A DNA stretch of 64,000 nt from Hormiphora californensis (GCA_020137815.1 CM035350.1:2666001-2730000), one strand, 5' to 3'. Counted from the stretch's first letter, positions 14,733 through 60,924 are shown. Numbers and translations: made by a program. Notes: generated by a model not told the origin, from the letters alone.

Positions 14733-15270
14733 TGTCCCAAGACCCAACTCCCAATCCCTGTCCCAACCTCTCCCCCTGTTCTGTCCCAAGACCCAACTCC
14801 CAATTTCTGTCCCAATCTCTCCACCTGTACTGTCACAAGACCCAACTCCCAATCCCTGTCCCAATCTCTCCCCCTGTGCTGTCCCAAGACCCAACTCCCA
14901 ATTTCTGTCCCAATCTCTCCCCCTGTGCTGTCCCAAGACCCAACTCCCAATTTCTGTCCCAATCTCTCCCCCTGTACTGTCCCAAGACCCAACTCCCAAT
15001 TTCTGTCCCAATCTTTCCCCCTGTACTGTCACAAGACCCAACTCCCAATTTCTGTCCCAATCTCTCCCCCTGTGCTGTCCCAAGACCCAACTCCCAATTT
15101 CTGTCCCAATCTCTCCCCCTGTACTGTCCCAAGACCCAACTCCCAATTTCTGTCCCAATCTCTCCCCCTGTGCTGTCCCAAGACCCAACTCCCAATTTCT
15201 GTCCCAATCTCTCCCCCTGTGCTGTCCCTAGACCCAACTCCCAATCCCTGTCCCAATCTCTGCCCATATC
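14733..15270. repeat. 49-bp minisatellite, about 11 copies
   Basis: Unit TGTCCCAAGACCCAACTCCCAATTTCTGTCCCAATCTCTCCCCCTGTGC (e.g. copies at 14880 and 14929). Confidence 0.95.
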
Positions 15271-15312
15271 CCTGCCCCGATCTATGACACAACTGCCCTC
15301 CCTTTTAGGAAG

Positions 15313-18300: not shown

Positions 18301-19743
18301 GTGAACAACATTGCTACTAAAAACAGGTGGGGAGATGTGAGAAGAGATCAGGCAGGAGCTGCTGGAGACAGGGACTGTATTGATGTGGAGGATGATGATG
18401 ATGGTACTTGTTCCCGGTTCTTCAAAGATGATGATGATGATGTTCCTGTTGTTATGGCAACATCAGCCAGTAATGTTCCTGTTGTTATGGCAACATCAGC
18501 CAGTAATGTTCCTGTTGCTACGGAGACTCCTAATGTAGAGAAGGCACGGAAGGACTTTGATAGCGTTTTGACCCTCGATGAACCTCCCTCTGGAAACCTG
18601 TTCACACCTGGTGAGATGGAGATGAAGGCTAATTTCAGCACAATAACCACTGGGTCATCACCTTTTAAAACAGATTTCGCTGTTCCACCTCCGCCCCTTA
18701 AATCGGAGTCAAAACCTAAAAGGGATCTGGATAGGTTGGCATCACTGGATACAGAGGAAAATAATTTTGATCCTTTTAGTAGTTCTGTTAAAACCTCCGC
18801 TGCCTTTGATCCTTTTGAAGATCCCTCAAATGATTTGGATAGACTCGCCTCTACTGACGATCATACTGAAGAAGTCGGAGAATCTTTCAATCCCTTCGCT
18901 GACTTCCAGGAAACTGCTGATGACATCACTGAGCCTGATAATGAGGAGGCGGCTGGGGAAGATGATGATTTTGGAGATTTCTCAGAATTTCAAGGATCCG
19001 AGGAAATGTCAGAAGCTACAGAGGCCTCCAAAACGGATTCTTTGGCGCTGAAGAATCTACCCAGCAAAGACTTGGATGGGTTTTGGAACGATATGGTTGA
19101 TTCTCTCGGTCCCAAGGTTGAAAAACAGGTAGAACCAGAGCCAGCATTTGACTTTGCCTCATTTTCAGAAGATCCCCAAACTCCAGTCCCTGAACAACAG
19201 GTCAGCTATGACGCGTTTAAAGACAACCCTGCCCCGGCTGCGGATGAGGACAGGCTCGGTGCCTGGAGCAAGTGTCTATCTCTCGTGTTGGCCACCCTCA
19301 TAACATGTCAATCCAGCCTCTCCAACCCCTCCCAAGAAGTTCTGAGAGAAGTTGTCGAGAGCGAGAAGGGTCAGACATACCTGACAGCAGTTACAGAAGT
19401 GTTCAAAGTAGCGTGTAGGGTCAGTCAGTCAGGATCTCACGAGGACGGGGTGGTGGAGATCTTCAAGGAGATAAAGCATACCTGGACCCTGGTGAGTGAG
19501 GCGCTGGATGGCATTATAGATCTGCCCACTCCGAGGGAGTTTAACATCCCCGGTGGAAGCAATGAGGTGGAGTGGGATAGGAACTGTGGGATATGTCTGT
19601 TGGATACCAAGGGAGATGGAGAGAAGAGTGTCCTTCAGTATAACCGTATTATGTACCATGTCACTTGTGCTAACTTCTGGCTCAACTCAATAGACGATAT
19701 GCTACCCAATCTGAATAGAAAACTTGATCAGCCACTCTTGTAA
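15313..19743 (+). CDS. SYNRG: Synergin gamma-like AP-1/clathrin adaptor accessory protein, single exon, 1476 aa
   Basis: Q/P-rich N-terminus; many DDFGDF/DEWGDF/DDWADF gamma-adaptin-ear motifs and DPF/NPF motifs; synergin-type C-terminus CGICLLD...YHVTCANFWLN. Confidence 0.85.
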   Translation: MNQQQQFGMYGIQPPAQLTPEQMAAMQKQQQLFLKQQQQYMAQQQQLQKQMQREEQRNRLRNMNVRSMGTPTYNQATPGPRVQGVGGYHGYPQPGSLPQQQPSPFVQQQQQQFVQQGGGFVQQQPAPSTPYQPYQAGFPPQQQGFPPRQQGFNNSTFSPSQPQFTSPTASYPPNNMQPTSQPNQTSFSHSKQPPFSQSSQTPFSQPNQPSFPPRTPLTNSHQPGTFTQQQSFQPPPFPQPSSQPFFNSGSTVSQPNSTPLSRPQISQPGSFSSTLLTPSQPNQMPSPSQPLNNSTQITFPNGSLITPSPQHPFPPISSQPLAPISSQPLAPISSQPLAPISSQPLAPISSQPLTPVKPVKCEATSDLISGFVASAASEPSSTGGGVTSLFAPQPPNLGEEDDFGDFAAPVPSGINGVTPNNHLPTSNNSLIGGGFSTEPFSAFNNTQSSLPDITAPKKQPTFTSPSVHPPVIEDEDDFGDFAGPATGTPFPLLTSPPTAPSPSPSLQSSSGTEYIPGTLVDENADVIHSVEMFAKPITTQNSQTKSEFDKLIEKSLSGKATKSDPKELFRPVSKPAIPSMKSDVKVSANAANWASLDLGGVFGTEEKTEEDDFGDFLASETKGPMASLPSNSDSNSNDIFSIFGSTEPPKTTVAPAFSFLDEPTTKPQPAVAPILDIFSSNHAPPKTPDLLDGLFSAGAPKPKTISESSDQAWSDFTSTAPVQPIASHPAMPLPLITPAVPGKIPDLYQQIVQFCDTPSGIIDVSKVYEVMLTDSFQVIALQPLMGQCNMSERPRAADLIDLIGLVALKQKGFPAPVKADINYQKLILPSVNSKVLKSVKLKSDKPTLLSFVEPEKKEPKFKPVFDFGTSGTIDFANAPFAGEEKKSAADAEDDEWGDFGTVDDVTKKTGFDTLFGESEPVDLFSSAPIIPPFSSSASIAPKIGGPMVAAPKSRKPPPVNWDEPPPLSEEEDDDWADFAHPGQKWGIDHDELDQAAVNNIATKNRWGDVRRDQAGAAGDRDCIDVEDDDDGTCSRFFKDDDDDVPVVMATSASNVPVVMATSASNVPVATETPNVEKARKDFDSVLTLDEPPSGNLFTPGEMEMKANFSTITTGSSPFKTDFAVPPPPLKSESKPKRDLDRLASLDTEENNFDPFSSSVKTSAAFDPFEDPSNDLDRLASTDDHTEEVGESFNPFADFQETADDITEPDNEEAAGEDDDFGDFSEFQGSEEMSEATEASKTDSLALKNLPSKDLDGFWNDMVDSLGPKVEKQVEPEPAFDFASFSEDPQTPVPEQQVSYDAFKDNPAPAADEDRLGAWSKCLSLVLATLITCQSSLSNPSQEVLREVVESEKGQTYLTAVTEVFKVACRVSQSGSHEDGVVEIFKEIKHTWTLVSEALDGIIDLPTPREFNIPGGSNEVEWDRNCGICLLDTKGDGEKSVLQYNRIMYHVTCANFWLNSIDDMLPNLNRKLDQPLL

Positions 19744-23519: not shown

Positions 23520-26500
23520 ATGGGTAAAGCAACAAACACAACGACATCCAGACGTTCTACACGACTTGCTAAGGTAAACATAATTTTACATTAACCCCCC
23601 CCCTCTGACCCTTCATTTCACTGTCATCCCATTTCAGAGGGCCTCCTCTTCAGCTAAGTCTAGTGATGAGGATGGAGATGGACCACCTAAACCACCTCCC
23701 CTTATCCCCATCGACTCCTCGTAAGTTGTAACCACATTCGGCTGCGGAAAACCACCCGGGCGGCTGTCATGCTGCGGTGCTGATTCGGTAGACTGGGTCA
23801 GAGTGGCGCGCATTAGTGAAAAGTGCACCATTTCAGCACTTACTGCGGCAGGCCCCGCGCGCACGCCCTTCTCACACACATCTCAGCTGTGAATATCAAT
23901 TGGATTACACCAATCTGCAGTGTATGTCTCATGTCGGGGCAGTACAGCTGTGACGTAATAATGACGTCATCAATTCACAGGTCAGATGATGAAGGCACCA
24001 GGACCGAGCGATATAACTGGAGCTGATGAATCTAACAAAGGTAAAACACACACTACTAATGGATTGGTAATTAAAACATCAATAAATAATATCACTAATA
24101 CTCTACCCCCAGATCGTGACTGTTCAATATGTCTGATGGACGCTGTTCAGCCTGTCCGAACACCCTGTCGCCACATTTTCTGTTATCTCTGTATCAAGGT
24201 CAGTAGAGACGGGTCAAGTAAGACAAGTCAATAGCTGGGATGTGTACGTGCCATGCGTGGTAAAGGTCAAGTAAATTACCTTCGATCAGTAAGACCCCCC
24301 TCTGACCCTCCTCCACAATTCTTGTTTTAACAGATCCAACTCCCTGGTCTCTCCCAACACTCCTGTGTTCTCCTGTGCCCTCCTGGCTAGATATGGTAGG
24401 ACGGCCTCCACAGGGCCCCACGCCACCGCTTTGAACACCCTGTACCCCCGGGCACCAAGCTGGAATGTAGTCGGATCACACAGTCCATACAGCTGGCCAA
24501 AATGAACTGCTCCCTTGTCCAAACCCTGAACTCGAAGTGCCTCGATCAGTATCCGTACAGTTTCCTCGTTGTGACTCCCTGCCAACAGGGAGCAGTGTCC
24601 CTCCTTAACTAATGGTAGTAGAACCTCTGTTAGGGTAGTGTTGTATGCCATGTCTGTGTCTGGTTTCGTCTCCTGAACCGGGTCAGGATACCCCATCTCC
24701 TCTGCCCGGGCCCGCTCTTGCACCATGTACGCACCCCTGACCAACTTTACACCCAGTATATAACCATGTGTAACGGCATCACCCGTGTGTTGGAGCACCG
24801 TCCCTGGGGTGCGTTTTAGATAGCACTGGTAGGTGTTCGAGATTAGTGCATCTGTCTTGTTGTACCTTCTCATGAGGTGGAGTGTATAATAATCTATAGC
24901 GGGTTGGAGGTATGTCTGCTCCGCGTCTATCATTATCCGAACATCCAACTCCCGGGTTTTGTCTCCAATCTGGGAGAGTCTGTCCATCAGCCGTTTACCT
25001 GCTGCTTTTATCTCGGGTGTTATCTCTGGCACTGTAGACAGTTGTACCCGACCCTCCATAACGGCATCCTGTAGGGAGATAAGATCTTTTTTCCCTGCCA
25101 TTTCTATTTCATGTATTTCTATTTCATGTATTTGTCCACTCTCATGTAGCTGCCTCACTCTCTCTAAAATCACCGTGACTTGATTTAAAAACTGTGGTGT
25201 CGTGAGTCCTGTGATTTTGAAGGACGAATAAGGTCTGGTATCTGTCACTTCTTTTGAGGATTCCAGCACCTCAAGAATTGTGGTCAGGTTACCATGGCAA
25301 CCCTCCTCGGTACCTTCATCTGATCCCTCTAGATCCGCTTCTGCAGAGTAATTCAGTAAAGATTGGACTCCGTGAGATGAGAGCCTCTCCACACACGGTC
25401 TCAGCTCACTCACAGTCTCTCCCCCGGCAAACTGTCCGTAGAAGCTACCCTTCATCACCATTGTGAATATCTTCCGACCCAGAACTCGCCGGCTAATCCT
25501 CATGAGTCGCTCTGAGTTTTCCACAAACACGTTGTATGTGCAGAGTTTGAGTAGGACAAGGGACCGGACCAAACCGAGATTTGACACCGAGGCATACGTT
25601 GTTTTGGTATCCCGGAAATCTAAGGTGTCTGCAGGGTAGTTTGGAAGGGCAGTGGTTGTTGTCATGGGTTTGTTGCTACGTGGCGGGGTTACCATGGCAA
25701 TGGACGGTTTCTGGACAACAGACCTTACCATAGTTGGGGGTCGCCCACGTACCATTCGCTTCATAGCTCTCTGCAAGAATGTTAATCATCTGAACCTTGC
25801 TAATGCAATACATCATGATATTACATGATACATCATGATATACAATACATCATGATATTACATGATACATCATGATATTACAGGGTTTACTAACATGATA
25901 TTGTTACAGGGTGTACTGCAAAGTACAGGTACGGGTACGTGTGCACTGTGTAGGGCAGCAATACCACGGGATTTCCTGACTCGACCGGAAATGGTAGATT
26001 TGAGTAACAGTTCACAATCTGACGGCGAGGATGAGTGGACTTGGTTTTATGAAGGTAATCACTTAATTAGCAAGTAATTACTAATTATTAGATCTAATTA
26101 GCTCTCTTTTCCCATGCTCTGTTTTGCGGGCAAGCGGTTCGCTCAATAAAAATGATATCAGCATTTGGATACACGTTCAGACCCCGTAGAATACTAGAAT
26201 CTAAAAACCCTAGTAACACGGAGCATCAGAGCGTTTCACCTTAGCTGCAAACCCTTAAAAATATAAATAGTTATAATATCTATAATCCAGTTTAAATGTC
26301 CAGTGCCGCAAGTGCTCTGATGCTCATAAATCTGATCACAAAACCTAGCAACTAATGTATCATCAGTCCCACAGACTCAAATCACCACCTCCACCACCTA
26401 ACCGTATTATTACTAGGTCGAAGTGGTGGGTGGTGGCAGTATGATGCAAGGACATCAGCGGATATTGAGAAAGCATTCCAAGATGACGCGGACAAGGAAA

Positions 26501-28893: not shown

Positions 28894-29358
28894 GGGGACG
28901 TCATGCGAGCCACATCATGGTATGTGTATTGTAGACTTTTAAAGGGGGAGGGGAACCAGATTACTGACCCAGAGATATCAGCATTTTTATCATCGCACTG
29001 CACTGTTCAGAATTCTGGCGTATCAGCTAAAGGAGTACTAGGTCTGTTTGGGTGATCAAATATTATACACGTGATATTTTACTTTACTTTTACTTTTATT
29101 TATTTATTTTACAAACGATAAATCCAGGTTTTTACAATAATTATCGAAATACCAAAATATAATACATAATTGGGGACATAATTACTAGGTACATTTCAAG
29201 ATCGCCCAATCATGGCTACTCGAAACGCTCTCTCCCTCGGCCCTCTCTATCTCTCTCTATACTACATAAACTCATAATTTCATTCGGATTATGGTTCAGA
29301 TGCATACCACTAAAGTCATTATTGAGGGTTTAGTTATGGTGTTTAGATCTGGATATTA

Positions 29359-32300
29359 TCAGATTTCAGAATATTTTGGCGGCTCACGGCCATTTATCCT
29401 AAACTTGGATCGCATTGGAGGGGTCTCAGAGTCCCGCTCAGTCTGACCCCCTCTGTCGATAGCTTCATTTGAAATCCCATGTTGTTCACCTTCTTCCTTT
29501 TCACAGCAGCAACACTCACAACAACTCTTACATCTCCTAAACTGTCTTCTAATACATTTCAAGGTTGCCAGAATCTTGCTGATCACAAAGAACACTACTG
29601 ACCCAATAACGAGGTAGAATATGATTGAGATGGCCATGATGGTAGTTTTTGCCGAGTTCTTACTTCCTGTAAACCAACTGGCGGGATTCATATACTTTTT
29701 CCAGGTTCTAATACTTGTCAGAGAGGGGGCAAAGCCCTCCTCAAATTCAACCTCTTTAGTGTCATCTATATTGATGTCTTCCACCCTAGAGAATTAGAAT
29801 GGTGAGGGAGAGAGGAGTTACTGGTTTAGTGTCTTAATGGTATCTTAACGACCTATCCTATTTAATTGATGGCAGCTGTGTTTATTACACATGATTTTAC
29901 AAATTTGTAAAGGAGGGTTAGAATACATAACACATATAACAAGCTGGTGTATAACACTCACTTTTCTTCCTCTATCACGGTACACGTCACATCAACACAC
30001 TGTCGTTCCTGGTTGTCATTCCAAAGGACAGACAAACACACAGACAGGGTTTCCGTTTCAGCACAGTCTGTTGTCAGTGGTTGCAGATGTCGATAAGGTT
30101 CTGTTTGGTCCGGTGGTATTACCAGGGTAAAGGTTTCGTTCCCCACCTCCCCAAGTAACTTCCCAACTCCTCCGAATATCAAAATGGCTATGTACCTGGA
30201 GTTTGGTTTGAAATTGAAAGATAAAAATGAAACCAGGGCCTTTGTCTGTCTGTCTGTAACTTTGTAATTCAACTCACTTGTTCGAACTAGAATCGTGTGT
30301 GTACTCCCCGGTGAAAGAATCAAACTTAGAGATTTCCCTCACAAATGTCAAATCATAGCTACCATCGGGCAGTTTAACAGTAACCCCCAGTTTCAGTTTG
30401 GTACTACGTTTACGAATCACAACTTGCTCTTCCGTAGGGTATCGCTTTGCCTCCAGTATGCTTTCCCTGTGCTTTTCTGCGAGTGTCTTGGCGCTGCATT
30501 GGAAAAATGTTGGACTGAGTTCAAAGTAAACAAACTAACCGGTTTCTCAACATCAAGAAGGTATACCTTCTCCCCTATAAAAATCGAGCAAAGGAATCTG
30601 TCAGGCCTATGCTCTCATAGAGAGGTATAGTCATTCTGATTCACATACATCTCACTTACCCCCGGGGGTATATCCCTTCAAAATCGTTGAACCTAATGGC
30701 TTCCCTAACCTTCATAGTACCAGAATCACAGCTCAGAACAGTGATATCAATGGCATCCTTTACTTCCTGTTCCTTCCAGTCCAACCCCTTCTCAGTGTAC
30801 TTCATCCAGCCTGGAAGAGGGACAATTGTAATCAGGAACAGACCGACACAAGTAAACATTAAACAACCAATCAGAACTCGTTATTTAGGTGACGTGACTG
30901 GTTATTAGCCAATCAGGGACCAGTAGGACTTGTAATACAAACTGACAGCATAATGTGCAGTATACTGTGCAGCTGTACAGCATACTGTGCTGCTTAGATT
31001 GAATGGCCAATCAAAATGGAGGATTTGGTAAGACTCTCACAAGACATTAAAGAGTCTTTAATAAAGACGTTACCAAGGCGATCGACGCTATATGAGAATC
31101 TATCATTGACATCCACATCTGTCATTATGTCCTCTGCATCTGGACCATCCAGACCAAAGAACCAATCCCCAAAGGATGAAGACTGGGATCCCTTGCTTTT
31201 ATCCGTTAGTATCAACTTAGGAAACTTGCCATGGTTTTTTAGTGCTCTGAAATGCGAACTTGAAGTAACAACCCGGTAAAAATTTGGGTAAATTTAACGT
31301 AATTATCGAGGTTTTGCAATCCTACCCATTGCTGAAAGCCAGGTAGGTTTGGTTCAGTAGTTTGTTGGATGTACGATCGTATTCCTCTATGCTGACATTC
31401 AACAATCTATCAGGATTTGTGTCTTCAATCTTGAAAGCTTCGTATATTCTCTCGGTAAACTTCGATCCTAAAAACATGTTATGACATTAACCGCAGAATA
31501 TTGATCATGGTTATCGAGGTAGTCATGAATTGGATTATCAAATCTGCCAGAGCATTGTCACAACCGGGACCCCTATCTAAGAAACTTTTCCACTTTGACC
31601 CACCTTATCTCTAAGAAACTTTCCCACTTTGACCCTCCTTATCTATAAGAAACTTTCCCACTTTGACCCTCCTTATCTTTAAGAAACTTTCCGACTTTGA
31701 CCCTCTTTATCTCTAAGAAACTTTCCCACTTTGACCCTCCTTATCTCTAAGAAACTTTCCCACTTTGACCCTCCTTATCTCTAAGAAACTTTCCCACTTT
31801 GACCCTCCTTATCTCTAAGAAACTTTCCCACTTTGACCCTCCTTATCTCTAAGAAACTTTCCCACTTTGACCCTCCTTATCTCTAAGAAACTTTCCCACT
31901 TTGACCCTCCTTATCTCTAAGAAACTTTCCCACTTTGACCCTCCTTATCTCTAAGAAACTTTCCCACTTTGACCCTCCTTATCTCTACGAAACTTTCCCA
32001 CTTTGACCCTCCTTATCTCTAAGAAACTTTCCCACTTTGACCCTCTTAATCTCTAAGAAACTTTCCCACTTTGACCCTCTTAATCTCTAAGAAACTTTCC
32101 CACTTTGAACCTCCTTATCTCTAAGAAACTTTCCCACTTTGACCCTCCTTATCTCTAAGAAACTTTCCCACTTTGACCCTCCTTATCTCTAAGAAACTTC
32201 CCCACTTTGACCCTCCTTATCTCTAAGAAACTTTCCCACTTTGACCCTCCGTATCTCTAAGAAACTAACCCACTTTGACCCTCTCAATCTCTAAGAAACT

Positions 32301-35300
32301 TTCCCACTTTGACCCTCCTTATCTCTAAGAAACTTTCCCACTTTGACCCTCCTTATCTCTAAGAAACTTTCCCACTTTGACCCTCCTTATCTCTAAGAAA
32401 CTTTCCCACTTTGACCCTCCTTATCTCTAAGAAACTTTCCCACTTTGACCCTCCTTATCTCTAAGAAACTTTCCCACTTTGACCCTCCTTATCTCTATGA
32501 AACTTTCCCACTTTGACCCTCCTTATCTCTAAGAAACTTTCCCACTTTGACCCTCCTTATCTCTAAGAAACTTTCCCACATTGACCCTCCTTATCTCTAA
32601 GAAACTTTCCCACTTTGACCCTCCTTATCTCTAAGAAACCTTCCCACTTTGACCCTCCTTATCTCTAAGAAACTTTCCCACTTTGACCCTATCTCTACGA
32701 AACTTTCCCACTTTGACCCTCCTTATCTCTAAGAAACCTTCCCACTTTGACCCTCCTTATCTCTAAGAAACTTTCCCACTTTGACCCTCCTTATCTCTAA
32801 GAAACTTTCCCACTTTGACCCTCCTTATCTCTAAGAAACTTTCCCACTTTGACCCTCCTTATCTCTACGAAACTTTCCCACTTTGACCCTCCTTATCTCT
32901 AAGAAACTTTCCCACTTTGACCCTCCTTATCTCTAAGAAACTTTCCCACTTTTACCCTCCTTATCTCTAAGAAACTTTCCCACTTTGACCCTCCTTATCT
33001 CTACGAAACTTTCCCACTTTGACCCTCCTTATCTCTAAGAAACTTTCCCACTTTGACCCTCTTAATCTCTAAGAAACTTTCCCACTTTGACCCTCCTTAT
33101 CTCTAAGAAACTTTCCCACTTTGAACCTCCTTATCTCTAAGAAACTTTCCCACTTTGACCCTCCTTATCTCTAAGAAACTTTCCCACTTTTACCCTCCTT
33201 ATCTCTAAGAAACTTTCCCACTTTGACCCTCCTTATCTCTACGAAACTTTCCCACTTTGACCCTCCTTATCTCTAAGAAACTTTCCCACTTTGACCCTCT
33301 TAATCTCTAAGAAACTTTCCCACTTTGACCCTCCTTATCTCTAAGAAACTTTCCCACTTTGACCCTCCTTATCTCTAAGAAACTTTCCCACTTTTACCCT
33401 CCTTATCTCTAAGAAACTTTCCCACTTTGACCCTCCTTATCTCTACGAAACTTTCCCACTTTGACCCTCCTTATCTCTAAGAAACTTTCCCACTTTGACC
33501 CTCCTTATCTCTAAGAAACTAACCCACTTTGACCCTCTTAATCTCTAAGAAACTTTCCCACTTTGAACCTCCTTATCTCTAAGAAACTTTCCCACTTTGA
33601 CCCTCCTTATCTCTAAGAAACTTTCCCACTTTTACCCTCCTTATCTCTAAGAAACTTTCCCACTTTGACCCTCCTTATCTCTACGAAACTTTCCCACTTT
33701 GACCCTCCTTATCTCTAAGAAACTTTCCCACTTTGACCCTCTTAATCTCTAAGAAACTTTCCCACTTTGACCCTCCTTATCTCTAAGAAACTTTCCCACT
33801 TTGAACCTCCTTATCTCTAAGAAACTTTCCCACTTTGACCCTCCTTATCTCTAAGAAACTTCCCCACTTTGACCCTCCTTATCTCTAAGAAACTTTCCCA
33901 CTTTGACCCTCCGTATCTCTAAGAAACTAACCCACTTTGACCCTCTCAATCTCTAAGAAACTTTCCCACTTTGACCCTCCTTATCTCTAAGAAACTAACC
34001 CACTTTGACCCTCTTAATCTCTAAGAAACTTTCCCACTTTGACCCTCCTTATCTCTAAGAAACTTTCACAGTTTGACCCTCCTAATCTTTAAGAAACTTT
34101 CCCACTTTGACCCTCCTTATCTCTAAGAAACTTTCACAGTTTGACCCTCCTAATCTTTAAGAAACTTTCCCACTTTGACCCTCCTTATCTCTAAGAAACT
34201 TTCCCACTGCACTTTGACCCTCCTTATCTCTAAGAAACTTTCCCACTTTGAACCTCCTTATCTCTAAGAAACTTTCCCACTTTGACCCTCCTTATCTCTA
34301 AGAAACTTTCCCACTTTGACCCTCCTTATCTCTAAGAAACTTTCCCACTTTGAACCTCCTTATCTTTAAGAAACTTTCCCACTTTGACCCTCCTTATCTC
34401 TAAGAAACTTTCCCACCTTGACCCTTCTTATCTCTAAGAAACTTTCCCACTTTGACCCTCCTTATCTCTAATAAACTTTCCCACTGTGAACCTCCTTATC
34501 TCTAAGAAACTTTCCCACTTTGACCCTCCTTATCTTTAAGAAACTTTCCCACATCGACCCTCCTTATCTCTAAGAAACTTTCCCACTTTGAACCTCCTTA
34601 TCTCTAAGAAACTTTCCCACTGTGAACCTCCTTATCTCTAAGAAACTTTCCCACTTTGACCCTCCTTATCTTTAAGAAACTTTCCCACATTGACCCTCCT
34701 TATCTCTAAGAAACTTTCCCACCTTGACCCTTCTTATCTCTAAGAAACTTTCCCACTTTGACCCTCCTTATCTCTAAGAAACTTTCCCACTTTGAAACTC
34801 CTTATCTCTAAGAAACTTTCCCACTTTGAACCTCCTTATCTCTAAGAAACTTTCCCACTTTGAACCTCCTTATCTCTAAGAAACTTTCCCACATTGACCG
34901 TCCTTATCTCTAATTTGGTAATGAAATTCCCCCTCTGCGCTAGCTCACGGAGGGGTAATAATATCGCTTGTACGGCGGGAAAAAAATTCCTGTGTCCAAA
35001 CTACAAAACAGAAAGTTCTAATTTTTTGAACATACCGAGGAAATTGTCTGAGCTACCATTACATACCGGAATTTTTCGATATTTTGGCCATTAACACTGT
35101 TTTTGTTTTTGGAAAACTATGAAGATGCTGGAATTTGGCTACAAAAAGCTTCAGAAATGTGCAAAATGCCATTCCAAAGGTATTAGAGGTGGATTCATTG
35201 ATAACTAAGCTATAGTCGAGTCAGAATAAATTCCACAAGATTGGAATTTTATGCCCATATAAGGAGTTATGCGACACACCTCTGTTGTTAAACATGTGGT

Positions 35301-38300
35301 GGAATCGCTACCGGTCGTTACTTTCTGTAGAATTCAGGTCCTGGTTACTATACAAACTAGTACCATACGTTTTAGATAGGTTTTAGACAAGTTTTCGATA
35401 ACTTTTCATGAGAAGGTCCTGTAAATTTTCATTTTTAGGTAGGCGGTATTGTCACCCCTATATGCAATAATAGGGGTGACTTCGTAACCAAATCTCTAAT
35501 AAACTTTCCCACTTTGAACCTCCTTATCTCTAAGAAACTTTCCCACTTTGACCCTTCTTATCTCTAAGAAACTTTCCCACTGCACTTTGACCCTCCTTAT
35601 CTCTAAGAAACTTTCTTACTTTGACCCTCCTTATCTCTAAGAAACTTTCCCACTTTTACCCTCCTTATCTTTAAAGGTTGACAAGATACCTAAAACTTTT
35701 CGTATATCGTCTTATTTTGATTTATCATTAATTTTCAGCATTTTTTCAGAATTTTTTGTCGGCTAGAAATATGTGCAAAATAGGGGGTCTAGTGACAAAT
35801 GAGTGTGCCTTTTTTAAAATTGATAACGTAATATCTCCGGTTCCTGATGAGATACAGAAACCGTTTTGGTAGCGTTGGAAAGGTCTTATTGAGACCAATC
35901 CAACGCAACCAAGATCAAGTCTTTATCTTTTGAGGAACCGGAAACGTGAATTTCAATTTGCGAGACGCAGTGAGTGTGCCCAGTAAAACCAGTGCTGACA
36001 ATATCGGTAGACCCCCTATTTCGAATTTTTTTCTAGCCGACAAAAAATTCCGAAAAAATGCTGAAAATTAATGATAAATCAAAATAAGACGATAGGGTAG
36101 CCACTGGCTATTTGAAACAGTTTTTCACTTTTTTCCCTTGCCTGCCCACAAATCAAGTCGAACCCAAATTTTTTTGACCTTGTGTTACCGAGACAGTCCC
36201 TGTGTAGTTTTTTGGGTGGTTGGAGATGTCTCATTTTGTCTTCCGGGGCCAGGGTCACGTGATATCTATCCAAATTTGGTGTTTCAGATAGCCCGCCTCG
36301 GTCTGCTAATTTGAAACACCCGTATCTCCCTCAATTTCTCCACGAAACCGAAATTTTTGACATGGAATAGTTAGAAAAGGGTTGTGCAGAGCCATTCCAT
36401 GTCTGAAATCTGAATTTGTTTGCATGTGCTTGGTGCAGTGAATGTTTCCAAAAATTGTTTCAAATAGCCAGGAAAACAGTTTTTGCCCCAAATTCGGCCA
36501 ATTTTTGGCGGAAATGGCTAAACTCATAATTCATATCCTCCCTATGCCCAAAATGAACATCAAAAATTTCCGACAGCGGATTTGGAGAAAAGTGTTTCAA
36601 ATAGCCCTCCGCAGTGTTTCAAGTTACCAGACTCGCTTGCCCTGCAGCTCATAACATAGCGAAAACCACTGAACCCGACTAATTTCGATACGCTGAATCA
36701 CGTAAGCAACTTTTCCAATCCGTATGAGGTCGATAAAGTGCCCTAATTGAGTATAATTGGGTCTAATTGACCTTAATTGCTCAATTAAGGCATTTTCCCG
36801 ACCTCTGAGGGATTGGAAAGGTTGCTTACGTGATTCAGCGTATCAAAATTAGTCGGAAAAGTGCCCTCACATAAGTATAAATCATTTCCAGATGAAAAGT
36901 TGTAAATGGGGTAAATAAGACCCAATTATGCTTAATTAGAACACTTTTCCGATCTGAGAAGTGAGACGGAGCCCAGAGGTTTAAAAAAGCTATTTATAAT
37001 TATATTTAAGTTTCTCAATTTTCATTTTTTGAAATAAAGAGGAAATCTTTGAATTTTTTGTTTAAACACAAGGATTGTTTCTATTCCAGAATTTAAAACA
37101 ACGGCATGAGTACCTACTGTTTGCTATGCATCTCCCAAGACAAGCTACTACATACGCGGCACTACGTTTCAAATAGCCAGACCATGCGTTTCAAATAGTC
37201 AGACACTGTTTCACATTGGCAGGCGTTTCAAATAGCCAGTGGCTACCCTATACGAAAAGTTTTAGGGGGGGGGGGCGTCACCTTTTTTTGCCCATTGCTC
37301 ATAATCCCAGCGAATTTTGGTTTTGCCCATATGGTCAAAAATGGGTAAAAGTGGGCAAAAATGGGCAAAATGAGATTTTTAGTGTTTTTTTGTTGTTTTT
37401 TAAACTCTATAACTCGATTTTAATTCTTTAAAGTGAGAGAGAACAGCCCTGATGATGAGGTTTTAGGCTTTTCTGGGTTTATTTTGTTTTAGAACGTTTC
37501 TGAAACCCATGAGAGAAACGAGAATGGGTCAGGCCAATGCTCTGACAGTCACACAGCGGTGTAACAGTGTGATACCTAATATCGAGCAGCACACTAGCCC
37601 GGTGTGACTGAGTACGGTAAAACATTTATCCTTTGTTCCTGGTCCCTTGACAGGTCGAGATAGTTCAGTGCAGAGACCCTCTCCCGATGGGCATGTATCC
37701 GTATCGGCATTACACTCTAGCTCTGCACCTCCGGAGACAACACTAGGACAGTGGCACGAGCATCGCTTCGTTAACTTTGGCACGACAAACCTAAAGGGAG
37801 GAGATACGATAAACCCAAGATGAGGGGCGCGACGTGCCCAACCAAGATGAAGAAAGATGCGGGATTTACATGTAAAACAACTTGCGAAATCGAAAATGCA
37901 CATACTTGTACTTGTCTTTGATGCGATAGGTGATCTTCTCATCTAGCAATGTGATCTTGAATAGTGATCCTTGGGGAAATTATATTCTTATTAGTTTCTG
38001 GGAACTGGGAGAAAGTAAAGTGGCCTTTTCATATATAATCTGTCAGAGCAATATACCCATGTCTAGTCTTGGTCTAGTGAGATGTACCTGTAATGGGATC
38101 AGTTGCTATGTCATCCTCCGATTCCTCTTTGATGACGATGAAACAGAGAGATGTCCCTATGTTGAGGGTCACGTCCATGGCCACTGACGATTGGTCAACG
38201 AACCTGCCCTCGCTATCCCGAACTAGAATTGAACTCACTCCAAATTTATGTGTTGTTACTATAAAGTGAATGGAAGGTTAGAGCTAGATCCTTGTCTCAT

Positions 38301-38670
38301 CAATCCTCAATGTCACTTACACGGCCGCTTGTAGTGGGGAAACGGTATCAAAACACCGTGCACAGACGCACCGTTTACGTAGCGTGCGGGTAATAAATCA
38401 CACTTTTTCAGCTAGATCAGGATGAACATGTGTTTATTACCCACGCTACGTAAAGTGTGTGTCTGTGCACGGTGTCTGGACTCTGGACACCGTTTCTCCA
38501 CTACAAGCGACACTGTAAGAGTCTAACTCTATAAACATTGCTAATGCTCTTGGTTCTTCCTATTTAGGCCAGAGGTTATTGTTGAGTATCTAAACGAGGA
38601 GGTTCTTACCTTGATCACCACAGAAAGACGCCAATGACTGTCGAATAAGTAGAACAAAAAGTAAGATCAT
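29359..38670 (-). CDS. EFF-1/AFF-1-like cell-cell fusion protein (fusexin, class II fusogen fold), multi-exon, several indels
   Basis: Exons 38670-38610, 38222-38088, 37997-37906, 37790-37576, 31467-31074, 30810-29962, 29785-29359 with phase-compatible GT-AG sites. Signal peptide MILLFVLLIRQSLAS; collinear FF-like motifs MDVTLNIGTSLCF, LFKITLLDEKITYRIKDKYKFVVPKLTKRCSCHCP, CFTVLSHTGLVCC, VNDRFSYSVDRLGWMKY, VKDAIDITVLSCDSGTMK; TM segment; Cys-rich tail. Confidence 0.75.
30833..30925. mobile_element. Short interspersed CAGGAACCGACCGAA-type element (Pleurobrachia-like repeat), copy 1
   Basis: CAGGAACAGACCGACACAAG..CAACCAATCAGAACTCGTTATTTAGGTGACGTGACTGGTTATTAGCCAATCAGGGACCAGTA; related copies at 51353 and 62876. 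Confidence 0.75.
31575..35672. repeat. 34-bp satellite array (about 100 copies) in a fusexin intron, interrupted at 34915-35491
   Basis: Unit CTCTAAGAAACTTTCCCACTTTGACCCTCCTTAT. Confidence 0.97.
34915..35491. mobile_element. 577-bp non-autonomous element with TTGGT(A/T)A TIRs and 9-bp TSD, inserted in the satellite
   Basis: Left end TTGGTAATGAAATTCCCCCT; right end reverse-complements to TTGGTTACGAAGTCACCCCT; TSD ATCTCTAAT at 34906-34914 and 35492-35500. Confidence 0.75.
35689..37266. mobile_element. MITE with long TIRs whose right TIR is interrupted by a second element
   Basis: CCTAAAACTTTTCGTATATCGTCTTATTTTGATTTATC..GGCTAGAAA is mirrored by 36029-36094 plus 37249-37266. Confidence 0.7.
36095..37248. 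mobile_element. 1.15-kb non-autonomous DNA transposon with 24-bp TIRs and TA TSD
   Basis: GGGTAGCCACTGGCTATTTGAAAC / GTTTCAAATAGCCAGTGGCTACCC flanked by TA; internal inverted repeat at about 36677-36856. Confidence 0.8.
38320..38515. mobile_element. MITE (CACGG(C/T)CGCTTGTAGTGG family) in fusexin intron 1
   Basis: Imperfect TIRs CACGGCCGCTTGTAGTGGGGAAACGGT / ACCGTTTCTCCACTACAAGCGACACTG, flanked by TA; relatives at 54006-54186 and about 1908. Confidence 0.7.
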
Positions 38671-39106: not shown

Positions 39107-40986
39107 TCAGGCAGAGTAGAGTTGGTCCCAGGTGGCTGATCCAGTACCGTCCTCCGCGATATCGTATCCCACCCCCAGATTGAGCATCATTCGAGTGAAC
39201 TGGAGAAACAAATTATTTAAGCAAAGGTTATACATTTTATTGAGTTACTGACCCACAACGAACAGTTCAATGCCATTCTAATGCCAAAAAAAATAAAAAA
39301 TGCAAATGTTTCTTTTTGTAAGTTGGTCCTGCTAATGTACACAGTATATTTATACCTCTCTGTAGTCGATGAATCCATCCCGTTTGGTCCGCCACACACA
39401 ACAGATCGGTGACCTCCTCCTGGGTGAGTTTGTCTCCCACAGTCGTCACCTGGTGTCTCAGCTCATCCGCACTAATGTACCCATTCTTGTCTCTATCAAA
39501 CACCCTGCATGTTCGAGATGTATTAGAATATGTTTCATAACACTTGCTCTCAGAGAATCAAAGAACTGGCAAGTGCCACGGGCCCAAAAGGGGGGTGATG
39601 CGCCAAATTGCCCCACCTAGAATTTTGAAACCACATATATCCAGATTTTACAACGTCTTGAAATTACCTGAATGCCTCATTAATCTCCTTGGCCATGTGT
39701 TCCCAGGTCATTTTCTTGGCCATTATCTTGAGAAACTCGCTAAAGTCAAGAAGTCCATTCTTGTCGGAATCCACCTCGTTGATCATCTCTGCTAATTCAG
39801 ACTCGTTTGGGTTTTGGCCCAATGACCTGTTTGGCAAGGGGTTTATAGGCCAGTCATTTTTTGTCATTTTGGGGCCGTTTGGTGAACTGAGACATAACAA
39901 AGGTTTTCCACTTGTATTGTACTCCTATGGGGTACTAGAAACACCAAAAAAATTTTTCACTCCAACCGAGGTGAAGAAAGTGCCCAAAATGGCCACGCCC
40001 TTTTTGCCTGTATTTTCAGCCTTGACCAAAAATAGCAACTTTGCTTTGGATTGGAGTAGAAACGTAAATGAGGGCACTAAAATGTGTAGAATGAGCAGCA
40101 GAATCGATTGGTACCAAGCAGAAGTCGCTATCTCATCAGGTTCGAGAGATAATTGGATAATTAGGTATGAGGGTAAAATGAAGGAAAATGACCAAATTTC
40201 GACTTTTTACACCCATTTTTCGATCTTTAAAGTTGAATAACTCATTGACCTTATGCGATAAAAACTTCATATTTGTTACCCCCACTAATTTTTATATGCT
40301 GAACAAGCTCCTGTGAAGCAAAATTTCTGAAACCGCTCCTGAGCGGCTATAGCCATATGGCTCAAAAACGGTTATGCGCATACCTAATTATCCAATTATC
40401 TCTCGAACCTGATGAGATAGCGACTTCTGCTTGGTACCAATCGATTCTGCTGCTCATTCTACACATTTTAGTGCCCTCATTTACGTTTCTACTCCAATCC
40501 AAAGCAAAGTTGCTATTTTTGGTCAAGGCTGAAAATACAGGCAAAAAGGGCGTGGCCATTTTGGGCACTTTCTTCACCTCGGTTGGAGTGAAAAATTTTT
40601 TTGGTGTTTCTAGGACCCCATAGGAGTACAATACAAGTGGAAAACCTTTGTTATGTCTCAGTTCACCAATTAAGCAAAAAGTGATCAAATATATTATAGA
40701 CCATAAACCTGTTGTAGCTCATCTCAAGTTTAAACGATCGAAGGACTTACATTAGTCTTTAGCTGAACCTAAATCTATAATCTACCCTAAATAGTAAATA
40801 TAAGTACCCCTTTTTCAATGCTTCAACCCAGACTACCCTGCAGTGATCGAGGGGGTGAGTAGCAATATACCTGATTAAAGGTCCAAGATCCTTGGTGGTA
40901 ATAAACCCATTGTCATTAGTATCATACATCTTGAACGCCTCCTGATAGTGCTCCAATTCCTCCCGGGTAAAATGCTGACGCTCCAT
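39107..40986 (-). CDS. Calmodulin-like four-EF-hand protein with a C-terminal extension, 4 exons
   Basis: Exons 40986-40871, 39826-39668, 39504-39356, 39199-39107: [21 protein letters not shown]|[36 protein letters not shown]|[26 protein letters not shown]; EF4 disrupted by indels; tail [30 protein letters not shown]. Confidence 0.85.
39879..40669. mobile_element. Foldback/MITE with near-perfect ~290-bp inverted repeats in calmodulin-like intron 1
   Basis: 39879-40169 is the reverse complement of 40378-40669; this produces the mirrored ORFs 39689+ and 40362-. Confidence 0.85.
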
Positions 40987-41478
40987 TCGTAACTGCAGGG
41001 TATTGTAGTTTAGTTTGGTTTGGTTTGCGTATCTACATAGGACTATTATAAACAGCCATACAACCAAGCTTCTCCCCGGATCATCCTTTCGGAATCACCA
41101 CCAGATCGTCTAGTCTGGGACAATCCAGTCTATCGTAGCTAACAGTCTAGAAGAAGATCTAAGCGAATCTACTAACAGTTTAGATGTATCTACCAATAGT
41201 TTAGACGTATAGATGGGATCCCAAGGTCTAGCAGATCTATTCAGACTAAAACAAAATTATAGATCATACTTTATGACACCGCTCTGCATACCACCGCCAC
41301 CCCACCCCCCCCCCCCCCCCCCCGCCCCAAAGCAACAGCAAAGAATATTATATGGGAGCTGAGTCACACAATGCAACTATCGCTGATTGGTGACACCCAG
41401 GGCCACACTGAATCATTGTCAAGCTATACAATAAGAAAGGAACCTCCTCTTGATCGACGAAACATACAATAGCTCCAC

Positions 41479-41572: not shown

Positions 41573-42469
41573 CTGGGTGTGATGCAATTGCATTCTTCTC
41601 ATGATCACTATAATAATCACTCTCCCATCATTTTATGCCCATATTATCCTACCACTAACCCATTCTTGAGCGGTCTATCTAAACCTAGAGCCTAGAGGTC
41701 CTTACCCTAATTGCATAAAACGTTCTTCTTTCTTGGAAAGAGTAGCTATAGCCTATATACACAACAAGGCAACAGAATGACTATGAGTGATGATATAGAA
41801 AGGAGTAGTGCGATGAATAATTTCTTGGAAATGTTGGATATTGTTTCACTGATGATCAGGGTAATGAGTCATTATTAATGACCCCAGCTCATAGCTTACT
41901 GGGTAACATATATTGCATTTTAAAAGACATCATTGATATTAATTCCTTATCTGACGGCGCCCAGACTCCTAATTTGATCCTTAAAACGGACAGTGCGTTC
42001 AGATCGGTTAGGTGTCGCCAAACAGAACTGAGAACGAATAGAAACGGAATTGGACAATATATATATATAGGTAGTATAGACAACTGCAGCTTTCCGAGTA
42101 TTTTGTCTTTTTCCCGCAGAGATTTTTTTGATATGACGGGCTAACTGCAATCTCTATAGTTTTGGTTGAATATGAATCTCACTCCATGAAATTAGATAGG
42201 GCGAGAGTATCAATGAGCTATGCTTTAATTGGTTTCAATTATCGAATCTCATTACATGTGGACATTGCCACACACATCACAGTTGTCAGGCAGTACAACT
42301 TGTACAATTATCATTATGATGTACTACATGATCTGGATCAGATATCCCGGCCCAACCTTCTAACACATACATTACAACACTATCTAGTACGACTGACAGT
42401 TCATAGGGACCAACTTACAAAAAGTGCCCGGGTAGTGTTGAACCGATCGATGACCCCCTGTTTATTCCT

Positions 42470-44915
42470 CGCCTCCCGCAACCTTTCTCATCTAGAGTCT
42501 ATAGACCCCTCACCTCCCGCATCCTACCTCATCTAGAGTCTATAGACCCCTCACCTCCCGCAACCTACCTCATCTAGAGTCTATATAGACCCCTCACCTC
42601 CCGCAACCTACCTCATCTAGAGTCTATAGACCCCTCACCTCCCGCAACCTACCTCATCTAGAGTCTATAGACCCCTCACCTCCCGCATCCTACCTCATCT
42701 AGAGTCTATAGACCCCTCACCTCCCGCAACATACCTCATCTAGAGTCTATAGACCCCTCACCTCCCGCAACCTACCTCATCTAGAGTCTATAGACCCCTC
42801 ACCTCCCGCAACCTACCTCATCTAGAGTCTATAGACCCCTCACCTCCCGCAACCTACTTCATCTAGAGTCTATAGACCCCTCACCTCCCGCAACCTACCT
42901 CATCTAGAGTCTATAGACCCCTCACCTCCCGCAACCTACCTCATCTAGAGTCTATAGACCCCTCACCTCCCGCAACCTACTTCATCTAGAGTCTATAGAC
43001 CCCTCACCTCCCGCAACCTACCTCATCTAGAGTCTATAGACCCCTCACCTCCCGCAACCTACCTCATCTAGAGTCTATAGACCCCTCACCTCCCGCAACC
43101 TACCTCATCTAGAGTCTATAGACCCCTCACCTCCCGCATCCTACCTCATCTAGAGTCTATAGACCCCTCACCTCCCGCATCCTACCTCATCTAGAGTCTA
43201 TAGACCCATCACCTCCCGCATCCTACCTCATCTAGAGTCTATAGACCCCTCACCTCCCGCAACCTACCTCATCTAGAGTCTATAGACCCCTCACCTCCCG
43301 CAACCTACCTCATCTAGAGTCTATAGACCCCTCACCTCCCGCAACCTACCTCATCTAGAGTCTATAGACCCCTCACCTCCCGCAACCTACTTCATCTAGA
43401 GTCTATAGACCCCTCACCTCCCGCAACCTACCTCATCTAGAGTCTATAGACCCCTCACCTCCCACTACATACCTCATCTAGAGTCTATAGACCCCTCACC
43501 TCCCGCAACCTACCTCATCTAGAGTCTATAGACCCCTCACCTCCCGCAACCTACCTCATCTAGAGTCTATAGACCCCTCACCTCCCGCAACCTACTTCAT
43601 CTAGAGTCTATAGACCCCTCACCTCCCGCAACCTACCTCATCTAGAGTCTATAGACCCCTCACCTCCCGCATCCTACCTCATCTAGAGTCTATAGACCCC
43701 TCACCTCCCGCAACATACCTCATCTAGAGTCTATAGACCCCTCACCTCCCGCAACCTTTCTCATCTAGAGTCTATAGACCCCTCACCTCCCGCATCCTAC
43801 CTCATCTAGAGTCTATAGACCCCTCACCTCCCGCAACCTACCTCATCTAGAGTCTATAGACCCCTCACCTCCCGCAACCTACTTCATCTAGAGTCTATAG
43901 ACCCCTCACCTCCCGCAACCTACCTCATCTAGAGTCTATAGACCCCTCACCTCCCGCAACATACCTCATCTAGAGTCTATAGACCCCTCACCTCCCGCAA
44001 CCTACCTCATCTAGAGTCTATAGACCCCTCACCTCCCGCAACCTACCTCATCTAGAGTCTATAGACCCCTCACCTCCCGCAACCTACCTCATCTAGAGTC
44101 TATAGACCCCTCACCTCCCGCAACCTACCTCATCTAGAGTCTATAGACCCCTCACCTCCCGCAACCTACCTCATCTAGAGTCTATAGACCCCTCACCTCC
44201 CGCAACCTACCTCATCTAGAGTCTATATAGACCCCTCACCTCCCGCAACCTACTTCATCTAGAGTCTATAGACCCCTCACCTCCCGCAACCTACCTCATC
44301 TAGAGTCTATAGACCCCTCACCTCCCGCAACCTACCTCATCTAGAGTCTATAGACCCCTCACCTCCCGCAACCTACCTCCTCTAGAGTCTATAGACCCCT
44401 CACCTCCCGCAACCTTTCTCATCTAGAGTCTATAGACCCCTCACCTCCCGCAACCTACCTCATCTAGAGTCTATAGACCCCTCACCTCCCGCAACCTACC
44501 TCGTCTAGAGTCTATAGACCCCTCACCTCCCGCAACCTTTCTCATCTAGAGTCTATAGACCCCTCACCTCCCGCAACCTACCTCATCTAGAGTCTATAGA
44601 CCCCTCACCTCCCGCAACCTACCTCATCTAGAGTCTATAGACCCCTCACCTCCCACTACATACCTCGTCTAGAGTCTATAGACCCCTCACCTCCCGCAAC
44701 CTACCTCATCTAGAGTCTATAGACCCCTCACCTCCCACAACCTACCTCATCTAGAGTCTATAGACCCCTCACCTCCCACAACCTACCTCGTCTAGAGTCT
44801 ATAGACCCCTCACCTCCCGCAACCTACCTCATCTAGAGTCTATAGACCCCTCACCTCCCACTACATACCTCGTCTAGAGTCTATAGACCCCTCACCTCCC
44901 ACAACCTACCTCATC
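42470..44915. repeat. 41-bp satellite array (about 59 copies)
   Basis: Unit TCATCTAGAGTCTATAGACCCCTCACCTCCCGCAACCTACC, containing the palindromes TCTAGA and GTCTATAGAC. Confidence 0.97.
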
Positions 44916-45469
44916 AAGAAGAGAGGTACCAGCCGCCCCATTCAAAAACCTCCATACGTTGAAGAAACTCATGGTATATCAGACAGACACACAGTTGCAG
45001 CTGTGTTGTTGTGCGTTGATCAATAAAACACACTTGTAAAATAAAATGACTGCGTGATACGTTCTACACGGAAGTGAATATATATATCACAAATATAATT
45101 GAAAGCTTCACAACAAACTTCAATGCAAAATATTGACTGATATCCGGTAGTATAAGTACAAAGGAATTGTTTGGTCGATGTTTGGTCGACACACGGAATC
45201 TCTACTGACACACACAATGGCAGTCGTGTCACCGGGTGGTACAGATCAAGCTGGTCATTCCCAAGCAGGAGGGGGAGAATATAATAGTATGATCTGGAGC
45301 CGTTACTACCATTAACGGTAGGACAATGAAGGGGAGGGATATTACTCTCAAGAAGGGACAATTCACTCTCTGACACTCGATAGTTGTTGAGTAAGGGGTG
45401 GACAACAACTCAATAGTGCATTAGCATACACCGCGGCCCCTAATTTGATGGGAATTTTGTTGATCTACA

Positions 45470-49714: not shown

Positions 49715-50623
49715 GACACTAATATTGAGATGGGTGACACTAATGAGACACTAATACTGAGATGGGTGACACTAATGAGACACTAATATATTGAGATGGG
49801 TGACACTAATGAGACACTAATATTGAGATGGGTGACACTAATGAGACACTAATATTGAGATGAGTGACACTAATGAGACACTAATATTGAGATGGGTGAC
49901 ACTAATGAGACACTAATATTGAGATGGGTGACACTACTGAGACACTAATATTGAGATGGGTGACACTAATGAGACACTAATATTGAGATGGGTGACACTA
50001 CTGAGACACTAATATTGAGATGGGTGACACTACTGAGACACTAATATTGAGATGGGTGACACTAATGAGACACTAATATTGAGATGGGTGACACTAATAG
50101 TAATGAGACACTAATATTGAGATGGGTGACACTAATAGTAATGAGACACTAATATTGAGATGGGTGACACTACTGAGACACTAATATTGAGATGGGTGAC
50201 ACTAATGAGACACTAATATTGAGATGGGTGACACTACTGAGACACTAATATTGAGACGGGTGACACTACTGAGACACTAATATTGAGATGGGTGACACTA
50301 ATGAGACACTAATATTGAGATGGGTGACACTACTGAGACACTAATATTGAGATGGGTGACACTACTGAGACACTAATATTGAGATGGGTGACACTAATGA
50401 GACACTAATATTGAGATGGGTGACACTACTGAGACACTAATATTGAGATGGGTGACACTAATAGTAATGAGACACTAATATTGAGATGGGTGACACTAAT
50501 GAGACACTAATATTGAGATGGGTGACACTACTGAGACACTAATATTGAGATGGGTGACACTAATGAGACACTAATATTGAGATGGGTGACACTAATGAGA
50601 CACTAATATTGAGATGAGTGACA
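49715..50623. repeat. 32-bp satellite (about 28 copies)
   Basis: Unit GACACTAATATTGAGATGGGTGACACTA(A/C)TGA. Confidence 0.95.
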
Positions 50624-54489: not shown

Positions 54490-54649
54490 AGTATGGAGTG
54501 TGTCTTATAATGCTATTTTGATGTTTAATTTATGACCAACTTTTTTATTTTTGACTTATTTAATTTTCATTTGATGCAGTGTTTTAATGTATGTATTGAC
54601 CCCCGTATTACCTTAGCCTAACATCTCTCATTTGCATTTTGTAGGTGGA

Positions 54650-56252: not shown

Positions 56253-56469
56253 CAACAGACAGACGACAACAGACCAGACAGACAGACAGAACTTTAACTT
56301 ATCTCCGAAGTTCCCCCCTCAACAAGTTCAAGTTACTAATCTCCCTTCATGAGCTCGGACTCATCGCGTATCAATAAACAATGTTCCCAAAAAGTAGATT
56401 ACCGAGTTCCGGGAGGGTATCATGGTTACAGACAAGCTCCACATTTCACAATGGGACCGCTTTTTAGGC

Positions 56470-57600
56470 CGTTGGTATGGACACTTTCACCCTGTAAAAG
56501 TATCACTCTCTAATAACACATTGCTGCGTAATCGGGCTGAATTAGAGACTAGAGCAAAAGATTCAGTTTGCTGATTAGTCACCATGTATTACCTGTTGTT
56601 GGGTTTGTTGGTAACGGTGAGGGAAGGATCACAGACAAGCAGTTCAGAAAGTGCCACTTGAGACACGACACGGCCAATAATTTGCAACGGCAGGCACGAG
56701 GTTTGTTGGAGCTGGCCTGGGTATGACACTTTCACCGTTAAAAAGTTCCTCTCTAATAACGTGAGGTCTCGTAATCGGGCCTAATTAGAGCCTAGAGCCA
56801 AAGATTCAGTGTAGTAGTGCCCTGTCAGGCCCAAGCTCGACCACGTTCAGCATGAGACTATGGGTCAGGCCAATGCTACTGAACAGAGTAGTCCCCATGT
56901 ATTACCTGTTTTTGGGTTTTTTTTCGGTGGGGGGAAGATCAACAGACAGCGTCAGTTTCAGACGTTTGCACTTTGAGACACGACAAGACCAGTGCAAACG
57001 GTAGCAGAGGTTTTTGTGAGCGTGCCGGGTATGACACTTTCACCCTGGTAAAAAGTTAACTCTCTAATTAACATGATTCGTCATCGGCTATATAGAGCTA
57101 CAGCAAAGAGTTTCAAGTTGCTAGTATTCACCATGTATTTACGCTGTTGTTGGTTTTTGTAGGTGGGAGTGGAAGATCACAGACTGGCATGTTTGCAGAT
57201 TCACTTTGAACACGACCAGGACCAATGCCCCAACGGTAGGCAGAGGTTTTGTTGGAGCTGGCCAGTTTGACACTTTCACCTGTACAAAGTTAACTCTCTA
57301 ATAAAACAGTGATGGTCGTATCGGGCTCTTAGGCTCAGAGCCAAAGATTTCGTTGCTGCTAAGTACACCATGTATTACCTGTTGTGTTGGGTTGTTGGTA
57401 AGTGGGGGGAAGGATACACAGACGGCAGTTTCTCAGAAGTTTCACTTTTGCCGAGCACCCGACAAGGACCAATTGCAAAGGTAGCCGCGAGTGTTTGTTG
57501 GAGTGGCCCGGGTATTATTTGACATCTTTCCCCTGTAAAACAGTCTAACTCTCTATAACCAGTTGATGGTCGTAATCGGGCTTAAATTAGCGTCCCTTCA
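56470..57600. repeat. Degenerate ~240-310-bp tandem repeat, about 5 copies, each differently indel-damaged
   Basis: Shared GACACTTTCACC..AAAAG..CTCTCTAAT..ATCGGGC..CAAAGATT..CCATGTATTACCTGTT..ACAGAC at about 56474, 56721, 57028, 57265 and 57511. Confidence 0.75.
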
Positions 57601-58759: not shown

Positions 58760-58770
58760 ATCTCTCTCCC

Positions 58771-58852
<82 letters not shown>

Positions 58853-59062: not shown

Positions 59063-59093
59063 GTAAATTGGGTTTTATATTATAATAATTATA

Positions 59094-60906: not shown

Positions 60907-60924
60907 ACCAAAAATATACCCCAA

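Follow-up and report, generated by a model that had tools for sequence, protein, structure and literature searches.

A ten-exon EFF/AFF-family gene from a probable ctenophore as a likely somatic cell-cell fusogen

Do ctenophores carry a fusogen of their own that could account for their syncytial tissues? The question is raised by a gene on the minus strand of a 64,000-nucleotide stretch of Hormiphora californensis DNA (GCA_020137815.1 CM035350.1:2666001-2730000; this whole stretch is called the window below), which runs from an ATG at position 38670 to a TGA ending at 29359. Our analysis suggests that it is an intact, spliced ctenophore host gene for a single-pass membrane protein that resembles the nematode fusogen EFF-1 collinearly, and the analogy with EFF-1 makes a role as a somatic cell-cell fusogen the likely one.

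Reading of the minus strand, together with a scripted test of the borders, yielded ten exons. All nine introns run from GT to AG with compatible phases, and their sizes in order from intron 1 to intron 9 are 351, 118, 115, 6108, 79, 263, 166, 82 and 176 nt. The coding sequence of 1854 nt specifies 617 residues plus a stop, with no internal stops and no frameshifts; a pseudogene or frameshifted gene is therefore rejected, and because the frame is open, no indel correction is necessary. The fragmented track of open reading frames (ORFs) is explained by the introns that split the coding sequence. When 20,000 GT/AG chains were picked at random from sites no more than 60 nt from the borders, none kept an open frame; since the exon borders were chosen by eye for keeping the frame, this figure reflects the rarity of open chains and not the uniqueness of each border. 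No second copy of the gene was found in the window by tblastn. The exons and the adjoining 3' region are as follows.

Exon 1, 38610..38670, minus strand: residues 1-21, with the start codon and a predicted signal peptide whose hydrophobic core is seen by inspection; frame support only.
Exon 2, 38088..38258, minus strand: residues 21-78, including Cys59 and, at 65-70, an acidic patch; supported by frame only, with no Pfam or PDB match.
Exon 3, 37906..37969, minus strand: residues 78-99; frame support only.
Exon 4, 37576..37790, minus strand: residues 99-171, with nine cysteines and the predicted domain II tip; matches Pfam EFF-AFF and the homolog P0145.
Exon 5, 31326..31467, minus strand: residues 171-218; 49% identity to the predicted homolog P0148 over 45 aa.
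Exon 6, 31074..31246, minus strand: residues 218-276; 43% identity to P0148 over 30 aa.
Exon 7, 30660..30810, minus strand: residues 276-326, with Cys303; frame support only.
Exon 8, 30278..30493, minus strand: residues 326-398; Pfam EFF-AFF match.
Exon 9, 29962..30195, minus strand: residues 398-476, with four cysteines; likely most of domain III, a label taken from position; joined to exon 10 by an RNA contig.
Exon 10, 29359..29785, minus strand: residues 476-617, comprising stem, transmembrane segment, Cys-rich tail and stop; supported by a PDB match to EFF-1A, by hydropathy and by RNA-type contigs.
Likely 3' untranslated region (UTR), 29095..29358, minus strand: AATAAA at 29108 and 29100; contig X1/1.

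A sequence-only reading had placed the gene at exactly 29359..38670 with at least seven phase-compatible GT-AG exons on the minus strand, a number that now rises to ten. Every window peptide that it quoted occurs in the translation, and the indel correction that it advised is not needed, while the frameshifts that it named as a possible sign of a pseudogene are absent.

Contigs of three public runs were compared with positions 29100-31560, a region that contains five introns. A contig from an oligo-dT metatranscriptome (X2/5) skips exactly intron 9, at a depth of 2.2 and with 4 differences in 246 nt, and exon 10 and the 3' UTR are covered by further contigs. Contig X1/1 spans 29205-29635 with 0 differences, X1 being only guessed to be RNA. 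Exons 5-8 have no RNA contig cover in these runs, which counts neither way. The transcript joining these exons, for which the earlier reading had asked, is therefore seen at intron 9, one of the five introns of this region. Two further observations concern the same contigs. The RNA contig X2/4 carries insertions of 1 nt and 2 nt, two bases apart, at 29435-29437 in the tail-coding region; the net change is in frame, and it is a length variant of a close relative or an allele. A short repeat at 30860-30925 within intron 6 occurs in great abundance in each of the three runs, with a depth of about 5,900 in X2. This pile-up is probably a dispersed repeat or a SINE-like (short interspersed nuclear element) piece present in many transcripts; as an intronic repeat, it was rejected as a sign of expression of the gene.

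The 617-aa translation shows the type I, single-pass layout of the EFF/AFF proteins, as had been claimed: an N-terminal hydrophobic segment (signal peptide by inspection), a Cys-rich ectodomain, one transmembrane segment by hydropathy and a cytoplasmic tail. The ectodomain has 15 cysteines, or 16 if Cys17 belongs to the mature chain, nine of which lie in exon 4, and the protein has three N-glycosylation sequons. An amphipathic stretch at about residues 499-512 precedes the transmembrane segment at about residues 525-545, where 19-residue hydropathy windows peak at 525-526. The tail of about 70 residues contains eight cysteines and ends in overlapping PPxY (611-614) and YxxI (614-617) motifs; PPxY resembles a ubiquitin-ligase signal and YxxI an endocytic signal.

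To which family does this protein belong? Pfam scans were made on single exons at E ≤ 10, the gathering score of PF14884 (EFF-AFF) being 25 bits. Exon 8 matches model positions 297-346 (E 0.001, 18.2 bits; E 0.00068 with the flanking ORF), and exon 4 matches positions 48-109 (E 1 and 8.3 bits alone; E 0.0068 with the flanking ORF). The homolog P0148, which aligns with residues 120-276 of the spliced protein at 40% identity over 157 aa (E 1.5e-35), matches the EFF-AFF model at 68-221 with 35.7 bits (cut-off 25; E 4.9e-9). P0145 shows 55% identity over exactly residues 99-171 and matches the Pfam model at E 0.0044; no Pfam EFF-AFF match was obtained for P0147 or P0149. Moreover, exon 10 ranked EFF-1A first among 177,635 PDB sequences (E 0.014, bias 0.1), and a rerun without the tail, made after this match was known, gave E 0.0083. 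The alignment pairs residues 503-551 with EFF-1A 535-583 and includes a common N-P-A-x-W stem motif. Across three regions the offset from the Pfam model stays within 48-60, and in exon 10 the offset from EFF-1A is 32 at both ends, so that the similarity to EFF-1 is collinear from domain II through the stem and transmembrane segment. These matches indicate that the gene very probably belongs to the FF (EFF/AFF) family, in agreement with the earlier description of the gene as a host gene with introns that encodes an EFF/AFF fusexin. Of the profile comparisons proposed with that description, the EFF-AFF one returned exons 8 and 4 below the cut-off, and those with HAP2-GCS1 and viral glycoproteins returned nothing. 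For HAP2-GCS1 (PF10699) and viral glycoprotein families there was no match for any of the nine exon pieces, the short pieces limiting sensitivity, and none for P0148 in Pfam; an identity as HAP2/GCS1 was rejected.

The homologs also bear on the age of the gene. P0145 and P0147-P0149 are partial relatives with 40-55% identity, and with exon 4 as the query an HMMER search of the library yielded three matches; P0146, a repetitive Giardia protein with only 15 matching residues, was dropped as spurious. P0148 crosses junctions 4/5 and 5/6 of the spliced protein and matches the intron 4 junction without a gap. The homolog matches are bounded by the exon borders at residues 99, 171 and 276: P0145 covers 99-171 (exon 4), P0147 ends at 171 and P0148 ends at 276. 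Intron positions are thus common to at least two other lineages, which argues for long residence in the lineage and not for a recent viral capture, and these comparisons indicate an old resident gene. Searches for a full-length relative elsewhere found none among 186 and 192 stretches of JGI metagenomes and none among 38 candidate stretches of viral contigs; a search with P0148 against longer proteins gave no full-length relative among 358 candidates, and the ESM Atlas gave nothing usable for exon 4 or P0148.

The lineage can be judged from a neighbouring gene. Some 3.6 kb off lies an intronless proline dehydrogenase (PRODH) gene (24286-25785, minus strand), which shares 48-53% identity with eight clusters, and the only named member among ten PRODH clusters looked up is the ctenophore Bolinopsis microptera. 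Most named bilaterian matches are 31-36% identical. In a PRODH tree of 26 rows, the window protein falls in a nine-row clade with Bolinopsis (100/100), where it forms the deepest branch, a long one. This placement marks the lineage as that of a ctenophore with high probability, if not proof, and it bears out the assignment made from the sequence earlier.

If the protein acts in the manner of EFF-1 and AFF-1, two bilateral fusogens under endocytic control (PMC6504885), its ectodomain would form the three class II domains and stand as a monomer on the cell surface. Copies on facing membranes would meet and form a trimer, as EFF-1 is a monomer before fusion and a trimer after it (PMC4050280). Domain III and the conserved stem would then fold back toward the domain II tip, so that the membrane anchors are brought close and the bilayers merge. 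In the tail, PPxY and YxxI would limit the surface level by ubiquitination and endocytosis, and the cysteine cluster may be acylated. Fusing muscle progenitors would be the most likely site of action, since it is there that fusion has been documented in a ctenophore, namely in tentacle muscle progenitors (PMC3502136). Next would come the subepithelial nerve net, a syncytium whose origin, by neurite fusion or by incomplete division, is described as an open question (PMC7617566), and fusion at wounds or in chimeras, which injured ctenophores may form "possibly by fusion" (PMC13482580). In the available text of these last three sources, no fusogen is named for ctenophore muscle, nerve net or chimeras.

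Several observations weigh against the proposal of a somatic fusogen of the EFF-1 type. Only two of the nine exon pieces matched EFF-AFF at E ≤ 10, and none reached the Pfam cut-off. EFF-1 was found in PDB by one of six exon pieces, through a match that includes the hydrophobic transmembrane segment, and the sequence search of PDB returned no EFF-1 for exons 2, 4, 6, 8 and 9, for P0148 or for profile A2. Predicted single-sequence models of P0148 and exon 9 had pLDDT (predicted local distance difference test) scores of 31.8 and 43.4, too low to use, and a Foldseek search with these fragment models, uninformative for this reason, returned nothing at E ≤ 0.001. Comparison of exon 8 with longer proteins yielded no full-length homolog (0 of 168 candidates). 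The RNA support for splicing comes from a single low-depth metatranscriptome contig at one of the five introns in the region compared, and the PRODH placement is that of one gene in a tree from which named sponge, placozoan and cnidarian rows are absent. In addition, residues 156-159, directly after Cys155, are hydrophobic, whereas the EFF-1 tip is acidic, so that the bilateral mode may not transfer.

This last point leads to an unlikely but distinct explanation, in which the FF protein is a gamete or one-sided fusogen whose hydrophobic domain II tip enters the partner membrane as in HAP2 and the viral class II proteins. Positions +1, +3 and +4 after the Cys155 equivalent are hydrophobic in all five aligned sequences, which represent three independent clusters, and EFF-1 instead carries the acidic residues EDD 157-159 at its domain II tip (PMC4050280). 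It is worth noting that the acidic patch at 65-70 mirrors DDE 69-71 of EFF-1, which suggests that the residue numbering is roughly in register; a hydrophobic tip at 156-159, unlike that of EFF-1, is then possible, with the register taken from residue numbers. That register also leans on an assumed cysteine spacing of EFF-1, and not on an alignment or a structure. Because a conserved acidic loop lies nearby (C125-C132, residues 125-132), the hydrophobic tip is a lead only; the loop is equally conserved and could itself be the functional tip. Nor do hydrophobic loops imply unilateral action (PMC6504885). A broader version is a tentative and doubtful extension: the family would be the ctenophore fusogen behind the syncytial nerve net as well as behind the fusion of muscle progenitors and of injured animals, and would keep a hydrophobic virus- or HAP2-like tip lost in nematode EFF-1.

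It is also improbable that the gene encodes an FF homolog whose fusogenic activity was lost in ctenophores, or never existed there, and which serves in adhesion, in the shaping of neurites or tubes or in membrane repair; in that case the ctenophore syncytia would result from incomplete division or from the work of another fusogen. The low similarity to EFF-1 would fit such a protein. So would the cytoplasmic bridges that link muscle progenitors before the multinucleate stage (PMC3502136) and the explicitly open origin of the nerve-net syncytium, for which bridges retained after division are weighed against neurite fusion (PMC7617566). However, the features that fold-back requires, namely the stem motif, the transmembrane segment and the cysteines of domain II, appear to be kept, and the gene is intact with intron positions conserved across other lineages. 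It is very improbable that the gene is a domesticated viral or retroelement envelope (phlebovirus-Gc-like, of the Belpao type) or that it encodes a Cys-rich receptor of another family whose matches to EFF-1 are due to chance. The single matches are weak, and a viral origin has been supposed for somatic fusexins (PMC9259645); but the gene has nine spliceosomal introns at conserved positions and is flanked by host genes (EF-hand and PHD-finger), none of its nine exon pieces nor P0148 matches a viral glycoprotein or HAP2 (E ≤ 10), none of 38 viral-contig stretches contains a relative, and one and the same family is indicated, in the correct order, by three distinct regions. A retroelement or Belpao envelope was rejected on the introns, the host flanks and the missing glycoprotein match. 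The likely somatic fusogen remains our preferred reading of this gene.

How does the protein compare with known systems? C. elegans EFF-1A, of 658 aa, has its stem at 510-561 and its transmembrane segment and tail at 562-658 (PMC9259645). Like EFF-1A and AFF-1 (PF14884; PDB 4CYL), the window protein is of type I, with 617 aa against 658 aa, and it shows collinear profile matches in exon 4, in exons 4-6 via P0148 and in exon 8, as well as a stem motif and transmembrane segment resembling EFF-1A 535-583. It differs in being very divergent, in its tail with eight cysteines and terminal PPxY/YxxI, and in the hydrophobic stretch that is numbered like the acidic EDD tip of EFF-1, if the inferred register holds. 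With HAP2/GCS1 (PF10699) and the viral class II proteins (phlebovirus Gc, Atlas Gc) it would share the fusexin superfamily, a relation that runs through EFF-1, and possibly a hydrophobic tip; the Cys-rich tail parallels that of HAP2. In contrast to these, the window gene is intron-rich and chromosomal, without viral context, and its exon pieces give no profile match to either group.

The presence of the FF family in ctenophores is already in print and is not new here. Sequence relatives in a ctenophore are credited to Avinoam et al. 2011 (PMC4723337, PMC6504885), as the sequence-only reading had stated, and this limits the surprise of the present finding. The window protein belongs to the same family and phylum as that homolog, which we take to be from Pleurobrachia, and differs in having a complete ten-exon model and in coming from a lineage that the PRODH tree places outside the Bolinopsis group. 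Database searches for relatives returned fragments only. In the literature covered, with most subscription papers, including the primary FF papers, outside its scope, we found no paper that tests a ctenophore FF protein or ties FF proteins to ctenophore syncytia or the nerve net.

The 6-kb intron of satellite and MITE (miniature inverted-repeat transposable element) sequence described previously corresponds to intron 4, which contains a 34-bp satellite and inverted-repeat elements:

Intron 4, 31468..37575, minus strand: 6,108 nt, GT-AG, with P0148 gap-free across the junction.
34-bp satellite inside intron 4, 31576..34913, no strand assigned: 98 copies, with 5 more at 35492-35674.
MITE-like element of 1.16 kb, 36092..37251, no strand assigned: perfect 27-nt terminal inverted repeats.

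The target TA of the MITE-like element (36092-37251) lies within one arm of an inverted-repeat element at 35705-36094, the other arm of which presents the empty site. Further satellites in the window are found at 42467-44919 (41-bp, 60 copies) and 49715-50623 (32-bp, 28 copies).

The surroundings are otherwise those of ordinary host genes. The gene is flanked by a calmodulin-like EF-hand gene and by a PHD-finger gene in convergent orientation; the former, at 39107-41094 (minus strand), lies directly upstream on the same strand and contains an intronic duplication at about 39900-40240 / 40300-40720. Among 12 long frames scanned, the sole reverse-transcriptase frame is that of a long interspersed nuclear element (LINE) about 20 kb off. 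This LINE (5362-9626, plus strand) is apparently intact, with an ORF1-like frame of 424 aa and, after it, a frame of 1097 aa for endonuclease and reverse transcriptase. A single-frame, low-complexity protein of 1503 aa at 15232-19743 (plus strand) has many DDFGDF-like motifs and no Pfam match, and presumably resembles clathrin-adaptor accessory proteins such as synergin. XPC/Rad4-like frames occupy 54617-62791, with a BHD_3 match at 62411-62791 (minus strand) and a 586-aa frame without a match at 54617-56377 (plus strand).

An intact, spliced and conserved FF gene is a concrete candidate for how ctenophores build syncytial nerve nets and fused muscle fibres, and it bears on the patchy distribution of somatic fusexins. 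Should the more tentative extension to the nerve net be true, one fusexin family would shape neurites in ctenophores and nematodes alike.

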